Virus record (IMG/VR): IMGVR_UViG_2737471848_000012
Source of the DNA: a virus
Taxonomy: Duplodnaviria; Heunggongvirae; Uroviricota; Caudoviricetes
Strand: one strand, 5' to 3'
DNA length: 6,260 nt
Shown here: piece after piece, positions 1 through 1,554 of the stretch
How the letters are laid out: every line of letters starts with the position of its first letter
How positions within the stretch are numbered: position 1 is the first letter of the stretch
The notes under the pieces: model-generated
The model's input: only the letters and a program-made list of their open reading frames with translations
Told to the model about the DNA's origin: nothing
Database searches by the model: none
Made by a program: the position numbers and the translations under genes

Positions 1-82
1 AGTCATATTCGCCCTGACTTTCCAGAACCATACGGGCTGCCCGTTGACGGACTTCAGGGGAAAAACGAGTATTTTTAGTCAT
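1..82 (-). CDS. IS3-family transposase OrfA, N-terminal fragment (partial, 5' end only)
   Basis: Minus-strand ATG at 82..80 translates as MTKNTRFSPEVRQRAARMVLESQGEYD..., matching from memory the N-terminus of IS629/IS1203-type OrfA. RBS GAGG lies upstream (reverse complement of 91-97). The ORF is open to the window edge. Confidence 0.8.
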   Translation of the reverse strand, partial: MTKNTRFSPEVRQRAARMVLESQGEYD

Positions 83-136
83 CCTGTTTACCTCTTTCTC
101 AGGGAGTTTAGTCTCCAGGATTCCCGGGGCGGTTCA
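1..136 (-). mobile_element. Left terminal region of an IS3-family insertion sequence (IS629/IS1203-like); the element continues beyond the window start
   Basis: Reverse complement of 121-136 is TGAACCGCCCCGGGAA, the TGAACCG-type terminal inverted repeat I recall for IS3-family elements. The orfA start codon lies about 55 bp inside this end. The 3 bp at 137-139 (tcg) could be a target-site duplication, but the other end is not in the window. Confidence 0.75.
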
Positions 137-155
137 TCGCGCCCTCAACAATGAG

Positions 156-295
156 TTTTGTGATGCGGTGCCTGGTGCCTCCAGGTGACGTTAACCAGTT
201 AACAATTAACGCCGGATACAGAGAATCCACCCATAACACTGTTTTTGGTTTTAACTGTTCCGCGTGCGCTTAGCCGCATTCACCGCATCACAAAA
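156..295. repeat. 15-bp perfect inverted repeat (156-170 TTTTGTGATGCGGTG; 281-295 CACCGCATCACAAAA) bracketing a 110-bp segment
   Basis: Direct read: the two 15-mers are exact reverse complements. The bracketed segment contains the palindrome CCTGG-N5-CCAGG (171-185) and two GTTAAC sites (190-195, 198-203). Confidence 0.6.
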
Positions 296-303
296 TTCAC
301 TTT

Positions 304-361
304 AAAAAGGGCGGCAGAGCAGTCACGGAGTAAAACTGATACCGCCAAACGTCACCAGAAA
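304..361 (-). ncRNA. dicF: DicF small regulatory RNA (Hfq-dependent, inhibits ftsZ translation), with its intrinsic terminator
   Basis: Reverse complement of 309-361 reads TTTCTGGTGACGTTTGGCGGTATCAGTTTTACTCCGTGACTGCTCTGCCGCCC, followed by TTTTT (reverse complement of 304-308). This matches my recollection of the 53-nt E. coli DicF sequence and its GC-stem plus U-tract terminator. It lies downstream of the three small genes, as in the Qin ydfABC-dicF-dicB operon. Confidence 0.75.
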
Positions 362-702
362 ATTGATAACAGAGGGCGTTGCAGCGGGGTTGTCACTTAA
401 GCGTATGGTCAACCTGACAACCCGGTGTCCTCAACGGGGGAAGGAATAACCCCGCCATACTTACCGCCGCGCCATTTCGCGGATTGCCACAACCGGAAGC
501 GCACGGTCGACGAAAATTTAACGACAGGCTATCTATGAACCAGCTACCTCGCCGTGCGCTTTCGCGTTATGGTCTGACTTTTCAGGGAAATATCCTTTCA
601 GTAAACTGTCAGTGCCGGATGCTCACCCGTGTCCGGCGCACGCACTCCACCTCACCCGTGGAGAACTCCTTAATTACCAACCTTAGCTTCGTTGGTTAGC
701 TA

Positions 703-921
703 TTAACGCGGGTATGTAATCATTCTGGCAATGCTTAATGCCGCTGCTTTTTCCAGCCTGGTGATATCCTGCTCCAGAGCGGACAGATTTTCAGCCTGCT
801 TAGCCCTGGCTTCATTGGCCCATTTCAGATCCTGCGCTGCATTAATTTTCTGGTGCATCCACTCATAAAGTTCATCATCGGTATAGTCTGGCGCGATGAT
901 GACGGGTTCTCGTTTCTGCAT
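703..921 (-). CDS. ydfC: 72-aa small prophage protein, YdfC-like (Qin dicB-operon family); function unknown
   Basis: ORF with ATG at 921 and RBS GAGGAA 6 nt upstream (reverse complement of 928-933). The predicted C-terminal half is helical and charged. Size and position (third gene before dicF) match Qin ydfC. Symbol is from recollection, not alignment. Confidence 0.55.
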   Translation of the reverse strand: MQKREPVIIAPDYTDDELYEWMHQKINAAQDLKWANEARAKQAENLSALEQDITRLEKAAALSIARMITYPR

Positions 922-950
922 ACTGATTCCTCGCGGTGCTGTTTCGCTTA

Positions 951-1079
951 TCAGCCGTTAGATTTTGCCGAGCTGGAAAGCGCCTGTTTAAATTCGCTGA
1001 AGCTGAGAGCTTCTTCGCCTTCGGCAAGGCCTTCGAAGTATTCTTCGTAAGCCTTTTCCATGATTGTGTCGAAATCCAT
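951..1079 (-). CDS. ydfB: 42-aa acidic small protein, YdfB/YdaG-like; not in the supplied ORF track (below its length cutoff)
   Basis: Hand translation of the minus strand from ATG 1079..1077: MDFDTIMEKAYEEYFEGLAEGEEALSFSEFKQALSSSAKSNG, stop at 953..951. The start lies 1 nt after the upstream gene's TGA (TGA-T-ATG) with RBS GGTGGG just upstream, suggesting translational coupling. Confidence 0.5.
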   Translation of the reverse strand: MDFDTIMEKAYEEYFEGLAEGEEALSFSEFKQALSSSAKSNG

Positions 1080-1080
1080 A

Positions 1081-1236
1081 TCACCCACCTGAATTTCTTT
1101 CCAGCCAGCGACGCGCTCCAGATTCGGTTTTAAACGTTTTGCTTTTGGTATACGTCATCGCGGTGAACGTACCGTCCTGGTTGGGGAACACGCCACATAC
1201 CAGAGATTCGCTGTTGCCAAGATCGATAGTATCCAT
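1081..1236 (-). CDS. ydfA: 51-aa small prophage protein, YdfA/YdaF-like; an alternative upstream start at 1317 would give 78 aa
   Basis: Internal ATG at 1236 with RBS GAGG 5 nt upstream gives MDTIDLGNSESLVCGVFPNQDGTFTAMTYTKSKTFKTESGARRWLERNSGG (51 aa), the size I recall for YdfA/YdaF. The ORF-track start at 1317 also has a GAGG RBS, so the start is ambiguous. Confidence 0.5.
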   Translation of the reverse strand: MDTIDLGNSESLVCGVFPNQDGTFTAMTYTKSKTFKTESGARRWLERNSGG

Positions 1237-1417
1237 GCTGACCTCATTTCCCCTTAACGCCGGGGTAGCGGAACAAAAACCTGCTGCATAGTTATTAAAG
1301 TTGAACCCTGCCGTCATGTTCTTACGCCTCGGGCTGGCTACTTAACCCCTGACCACTGCCTGGTAACTCGAGGTATTGCCCTGTATTGTGTGGGACGGGA
1401 TGGGTTGGTATGGGAAA

Positions 1418-1446
1418 ACTATAGGAAATGCCTAATTACTTGTCAA
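1418..1446 (-). promoter_or_regulatory. Leftward sigma70 promoter (PL-like) for the small-gene/dicF operon
   Basis: On the minus strand: -35 TTGACA (reverse complement of 1441-1446), 17-bp spacer, -10 TATAGT (reverse complement of 1418-1423). The -35 sits inside the 21-bp inverted repeat shared with the rightward promoter. Confidence 0.55.
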
Positions 1447-1459
1447 TAGGCTATGCCTA
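1447..1459. promoter_or_regulatory. Palindromic operator-like site TAGGC-N3-GCCTA (left copy), candidate RacR binding site
   Basis: TAGGCTATGCCTA is palindromic except at its centre and abuts the -35 of the leftward promoter. Extra GCCTAA half-sites lie at 1430-1435 (in the spacer) and 1475-1480. Confidence 0.5.
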
Positions 1460-1554
1460 ATAATTTGGGCGCGACCTAATAGGTGATGGTTTGTGGGAGA
1501 GGTAGTAGGAGTTAACTAACGGGAACTAGGAATTTCCCGTCGGACCATATAAGT

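Follow-up and report, generated by a model that had tools for sequence, protein, structure and literature searches.

The window, a stretch of 6,260 nt analysed at its whole length, was 100% identical in BLAST to the chromosome of E. coli OkiPb01684 (NZ_AP042519.1; L001, 9001-15260), a strain isolated from bovine faeces in Okinawa and represented by a complete circular chromosome record. The early-left operon of a lambdoid prophage was found on the minus strand in the order DUF1391 gene, ydfB, ydfC, DicF, an insertion sequence (IS), dicB, and ydfD. According to the RefSeq annotation of the identical sequence, the ydfA-like DUF1391 gene lies at 1081-1236, ydfB at 951-1079, and ydfC at 703-921, all on the minus strand. 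The DicF sRNA gene (309-360, minus strand) is intact and matched Rfam RF00039 over the full model 1-52, scoring 76.7 bits (gathering score, 48; E = 3.5e-16). With DicF followed by dicB downstream of ydfA-, ydfB-, and ydfC-like genes on one strand, the operon is of the dicBF type.

Farther upstream on the minus strand, RefSeq places a gene for a RacR-type repressor at 1555-2031, in the prophage immunity region and in the position held by dicA upstream of dicBF in K-12. By analogy with DicA (PMC10448788), the RacR-type protein may serve as the repressor of the operon. The immunity region does not belong to the DicA/DicC type, its repressor being RacR-type and its neighbors YdaS/YdaT-like. The whole region from 1555 to 2888 is Rac-like and comprises the gene for the RacR-type repressor, a divergent YdaS-like helix-turn-helix (HTH) gene, and a YdaT-family gene. 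Rac-like immunity combined with a Qin-like early-left operon makes this prophage a mosaic of two K-12 cryptic prophage types; in other respects it is a full-length lambdoid prophage that carries genes for lysis, head, and tail.

The first 136 nt of the window (1-136, minus strand; L001, 9001-9136) represent the left end of an IS629 isoform, comprising the left terminal inverted repeat (IRL), the leader, and orfA codons 1 to 27, with the remainder of the element situated to the left of the window. Read on the minus strand from position 136, the sequence begins with TGAACCGCCCCGGGAATCCTGGAGA, which constitutes the IRL (112-136). The 5' part of orfA (1-82, minus strand) starts with an ATG at 82-80 preceded by GAGG, and its translation, MTKNTRFSPEVRQRAARMVLESQGEYD..., belongs to an open reading frame beginning MTKNTRFSPEV... 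that is cut by the left window edge. The IS boundary falls exactly at 136, and positions 137-139 (tcg on the plus strand, CGA on the operon strand) are non-IS sequence. BLAST matches to IS-free relatives start at 136 and not at 137, because the base that follows CGA in the empty site is also a T. A 100-nt probe over the junction matched 26,019 places in 3,845 E. coli genomes, nearly all of them through its IS half; with thousands of E. coli copies matching the IS end, a chance resemblance is excluded. On the same strand, RefSeq annotates a partial DicB pseudogene with a missing C-terminus at 135-239, and in IS-free genomes a GTG-initiated open reading frame at this stretch runs in frame into dicB to give 97 codons. 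Since dicB, with its 62 codons, is intact on the far side of the IS, the annotated pseudogene is probably artefactual and due to a match with a DicB model whose N-terminus is extended.

Leftward extension in the OkiPb01684 chromosome disclosed the full element at L001, 7827-9136, which is 1310 bp long and carries both inverted repeats together with orfA and orfB. Its termini are of the form 5'-TG...CA-3' (TGAACC...GGTTCA), and 23 of the 25 IRL positions agree with the right end, the outer 14 being perfect. Within the element, orfA encodes 108 aa (IS positions 55-381) and orfB, beginning at 378 in the -1 frame, encodes 296 aa; the two genes, in relative frames 0 and -1, overlap where an A6 run is located (IS positions 373-378). 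RefSeq annotates a single intact transposase with a programmed frameshift (CDS 7869..9082) and marks an AL1L pseudoknot. Full-length OrfA matched the Pfam domain HTH_Tnp_1 (E = 3.7e-12), and OrfB matched HTH_21, rve_3, and rve, the DDE core (rve E = 5.7e-27), with 35 residues between the second D and the E as counted by eye in the translation (HSDKGSQY...AESING).

Members of the IS3 family are marked by a length of about 1.2 to 1.55 kb, imperfect TG...CA repeats, orfA and orfB in 0/-1 frames with an A-run, HTH and DDE domains, and a target duplication of 3 to 4 bp. The element agrees with all of these in its length and ends, overlapping open reading frames, HTH and DDE domains, and target duplication. 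By the convention followed in ISfinder practice, isoforms agree from end to end at about 95% of their nucleotides or more. Measured against the phage BP-4795 copy that bears the IS629 annotation (AJ556162), the element lies above this level, with 97.9% identity over 1310/1310 nt. Structure, domains, and this identity together assign it to the IS3 family as an IS629 isoform; IS1203 and IS3411 are likewise described as isoforms of IS629, and IS629 sub-types differ by 4 to 5% (PMC3271280). The original prediction, made from the window alone, had recognized an IS3-family element whose terminal repeat ends at 136 and whose orfA is read leftward, and the complete element bears this out on every point. 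The sequence to the left of the window does contain an entire IS to which 1-136 belongs, and the other IS end and the target-site duplication proposed as a check were both found there, the latter as CGA.

One copy of CGA (operon strand) occupies window positions 137-139, and the second copy was located 1310 bp to the left, at L001, 7824-7826, adjoining dicB. The flanks read ...GAGGGCGCGA|IS|CGATAATG..., corresponding to the empty site GAGGGCGCGATAATG in strain A1 (NZ_CP029328.1); in fuller form, the junctions on the operon strand are ...GTTGAGGGCGCGA | IS | CGATAATGAAAACG.... Strain A1 is IS-free, is 100% identical to window positions 136-1500, and carries the uninterrupted sequence GTTGAGGGCGCGATAATGAAAACG at the same place. 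CGA is present on both flanks of the IS and as a single copy in A1, and it is thus the 3-bp target-site duplication; IS629 was reported to generate duplications of 3 to 4 bp (PMC3271280). Removal of the IS and one CGA copy restored the A1 junction sequence over the junction stretches read in both strains, and the two strains differ in size at this locus by 1313 bp, i.e., 1310 + 3.

Beyond the IS, the left arm continues with dicB, ydfD, a gene for a 3'-5' exonuclease, a DUF4224 gene, a frameshifted integrase gene, and tRNA-Ser next to mtfA. The DicB, YdfD, exonuclease, and DUF4224 proteins have the same WP accessions in OkiPb01684 and A1. The dicB gene is complete with 62 codons, and its ATG follows 5 to 6 nt past the other IS end. 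For the integrase gene, the annotations of OkiPb01684, with the IS, and A1, without it, agree on a frameshifted pseudogene of equal length; being frameshifted with or without the IS, this gene shows that the IS is not the first cause of an excision defect. Comparison with an IS-free homologous prophage, as the original prediction had advised, thus gave an intact empty site with identical flanks, and it overturned the claim that the IS truncates the left arm of the prophage: this is a simple insertion with a 3-bp duplication and flanks that are contiguous in A1. The genes normally found farther left had been supposed to lie beyond the IS or to be deleted. They do lie beyond it, from dicB to tRNA-Ser, and the deletion half of that statement fails. 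Nor was a toxic gene removed, as the full 62-codon dicB lies directly past the IS. As to the suggestion that the insertion may have inactivated the prophage, the integrase frameshift is also present in IS-free A1, and a polar effect on dicB and the downstream genes is plausible.

The left flank of the prophage in OkiPb01684 is made up of mtfA and tRNA-Ser (L001, 2560-3540) and the right flank of a further tRNA-Ser and hyaA (L004, 32714-34346), and both tRNA-Ser genes point into the prophage. The prophage of strain A1, which has the identical left arm, ends at yodB/zinT (L005, 899-2422). This arrangement suggests recombination between two prophages integrated at tRNA-Ser genes, together with a large chromosomal inversion in OkiPb01684; the recombination would have taken place rightward of the antiterminator gene. 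At L001, 1-315 and 239-766, a second IS629-type copy was noticed abutting a short gene for a chorismate-binding protein next to an integrase gene and tRNA-Asn. With only 96.9% identity, this copy represents a different sub-type, and the tRNA-Asn locus looks like an island truncated by an IS.

The insertion point lies downstream of dicF, which is intact and situated 172 nt upstream of it in the operon direction, and between the Shine-Dalgarno sequence and the ATG of dicB. The IS and the ydfABC-dicF-dicB-ydfD operon point in the same direction. In the empty site, the native Shine-Dalgarno sequence GAGGG (142-146, minus strand) precedes the dicB ATG by 7 nt; in OkiPb01684 it is now 1313 bp from that ATG. 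The sole source of dicB expression in K-12 is dicBp, located upstream of ydfA, from which dicB is transcribed as part of ydfABC-dicF-dicB-ydfD; an internal promoter was not detected (PMC10448788). A simple loss of the dicB ribosome-binding site was considered and rejected. The right end of the IS supplies GGGGCGGU 8 nt before the dicB ATG, and this G-rich stretch is predicted to be equally strong: a crude duplex calculation gave a pairing energy with the anti-Shine-Dalgarno sequence of -7.1 kcal/mol for the IS end versus -6.1 kcal/mol for the native GAGGG. As the predicted pairing energy of the IS end is no worse than the native one, translation of dicB may survive. A scan of the operon strand inside the IS found no terminator-like and no promoter-like site; with the element co-oriented and without an obvious terminator, dicB mRNA could still arise by read-through. 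Also rejected was a hybrid promoter directed outward from the right end of the IS and serving dicB. The dicB ATG starts 6 nt beyond the IS, so a -10 element formed with flanking DNA would fall inside dicB and would be useless for its expression. Expression of dicB and ydfD is probably lowered or rewired, with DicF unaffected.

The same 100-nt junction probe was fully covered in one of 5,426 complete E. coli genomes, namely, the source strain, whereas the empty site (201-nt probe, at least 80% covered) was detected in 4,191 genomes. About 25 places in the OkiPb01684 chromosome match the IS end, and about 62% of the IS629 copies in O157 lie in prophages (PMC3271280). Because the junction was confined to one genome and the uninterrupted site was found in thousands, the insertion is, on the evidence of these genome comparisons, recent and strain-specific, caused by an IS that is abundant in OkiPb01684. 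An independent 1310-bp IS629-type insertion was found in the ydfC-dicB spacer of E. coli E110019 (L003, 4317-5626, corresponding to about window position 450). This IS is 96.8% identical in blastn to that of the window, follows the operon orientation, and is flanked by a 3-bp GGG target duplication; it lies about 85 nt upstream of dicF, in contrast to the insertion between dicF and dicB in OkiPb01684. The two separate hits in one 570-nt spacer may reflect chance or a regional preference.

With high confidence, we regard window positions 1-136 as the IRL end of an intact 1310-bp IS629 isoform that entered the dicF-dicB spacer in a simple and recent insertion, with dicB expression likely affected. 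The IS629 isoform, which would have transposed by copy-out/paste-in, entered this spacer of the lambdoid prophage of E. coli OkiPb01684, duplicated the 3-bp target CGA, and settled in the orientation of the operon; nothing was deleted, and the left arm of the prophage carries on unaltered past the IS. As a likely consequence, dicB and the downstream genes are placed 1.3 kb farther from the only known promoter of the operon and lose the native ribosome-binding site. Upon derepression, expression on the dicB side should drop or rely on transcription through the IS, and DicF, encoded upstream of the IS, should be unaffected. Nothing ran counter to the structural part of this reading; the functional part appears weaker, in view of the substitute Shine-Dalgarno stretch and possible read-through.

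Within the window, the operon breaks off at the IS, as would be expected if the element were a deletion endpoint at which the early-left genes (dicB/kil, recombination, and xis/int) had been lost, and IS629 is described as causing adjacent deletions in O157 (PMC9943667). Such a truncation is extremely unlikely, being refuted by the leftward extension and the comparison with A1: the 3-bp target duplication is perfect, the flanks are contiguous in the IS-free strain, and dicB, ydfD, and the genes for the exonuclease, DUF4224 protein, integrase, and tRNA-Ser all follow beyond the IS, four of them encoding intact proteins with the same accessions as in A1. That 1-136 is a solo IS end or decayed fragment outside a functional element has next to no probability. 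Only 136 nt are visible in the window and truncated IS629 copies are known in E. coli, one of them on pO55 (PMC3271280), but leftward extension refuted this reading as well, with the full 1310 bp, both inverted repeats, uninterrupted orfA and orfB with their domains, and a transposase annotated as intact and frameshifted, not as a pseudogene. Genomes with many IS copies are prone to repeat misassembly, and the junction is unique to one record, which might point to an IS copy misplaced here in the public assembly. We consider such an artefact highly improbable, as the 3-bp duplication matches at both junctions, a feature that no misjoin would produce, as the two flanks stand in exact continuity in relatives, and as the record is a complete circular chromosome.

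It is also unlikely that the IS was retained by selection for uncoupling the toxic division inhibitor DicB, along with YdfD, while DicF was kept, i.e., that the insertion is an adaptive domestication and not a neutral event. Such silencing would fit the precise placement of the IS, which parts the Shine-Dalgarno sequence of dicB from its ATG and leaves dicF whole, the toxicity of both DicB and DicF on overexpression (PMC10448788), and the finding that E110019 independently acquired a co-oriented IS629-type element in its ydfC-dicB spacer. Against it stand the lack of any sign of spread, with the junction in 1 of 5,426 genomes and the intact site in 4,191, the general location of about 62% of O157 IS629 copies in prophages, and the approximately 25 IS-end copies in the genome, with which a random hit is expected. 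Moreover, the IS brings a substitute Shine-Dalgarno-like stretch, and the E110019 insertion lies upstream of dicF, so DicF was not spared there. In a further variant, to which we assign a very low probability, the IS629 element would be kept because it rewires the operon: DicF would remain repressor-controlled, dicB-ydfD-exo would become a downstream cistron of the transposase transcript, the G-rich end of the IS standing in for the ribosome-binding site, and in E110019 selection for uncoupling would have acted a second time. If true, DicB dosage would follow transposase expression.

The case of the simple insertion described here is that of a known element with known behavior, the site being new and strain-specific; searching the literature for IS629 in combination with dicB gave no hits. 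For annotation, the left edge of the window is to be read as an IS629 end and the prophage as interrupted, not truncated, with dicB still there, and beyond this correction the importance is small. For DicB/DicF physiology, OkiPb01684 offers a natural allele in which dicF is intact and dicB is 1.3 kb from its ribosome-binding site and promoter. IS629 positions serve as strain-typing markers in Shiga-toxin-producing E. coli (PMC4667661), and the OkiPb01684 allele is of use for strain typing by IS629 position.

The element shares its length of 1310 bp, its ends, and its 0/-1 reading frames with IS629 and the isoforms IS1203, IS1203v, and IS3411 from Shigella and Shiga-toxin-producing E. coli, and, like IS629, it produced a 3-bp duplication, is located in a prophage, and occurs in many copies per genome (PMC3271280). 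It diverges by about 2 to 3% from the IS629 copies compared, inside the reported sub-type spread of 4 to 5%; its site upstream of dicB is particular to OkiPb01684. The IS3-family models IS911 and IS3 likewise have TG...CA ends, an HTH OrfA, OrfAB produced through -1 frameshifting on an A-run, a DDE catalytic core, and a 3- to 4-bp duplication, but they are different elements with which no close sequence identity is claimed. Copy-out/paste-in through a circular intermediate is the mechanism of this family (bioRxiv 10.1101/2023.06.07.543989). The interrupted operon resembles the dicBF operon of the K-12 prophage Qin (ydfABC-dicF-dicB-ydfD) in gene order, a full-score DicF, and a 62-codon dicB, and by analogy it would be driven by a single repressor-controlled promoter upstream of ydfA (PMC10448788). 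Unlike Qin, a cryptic prophage with DicA, the prophage in OkiPb01684 is a full-length lambdoid one with a RacR-type repressor, and its operon is split by IS629 between dicF and dicB.
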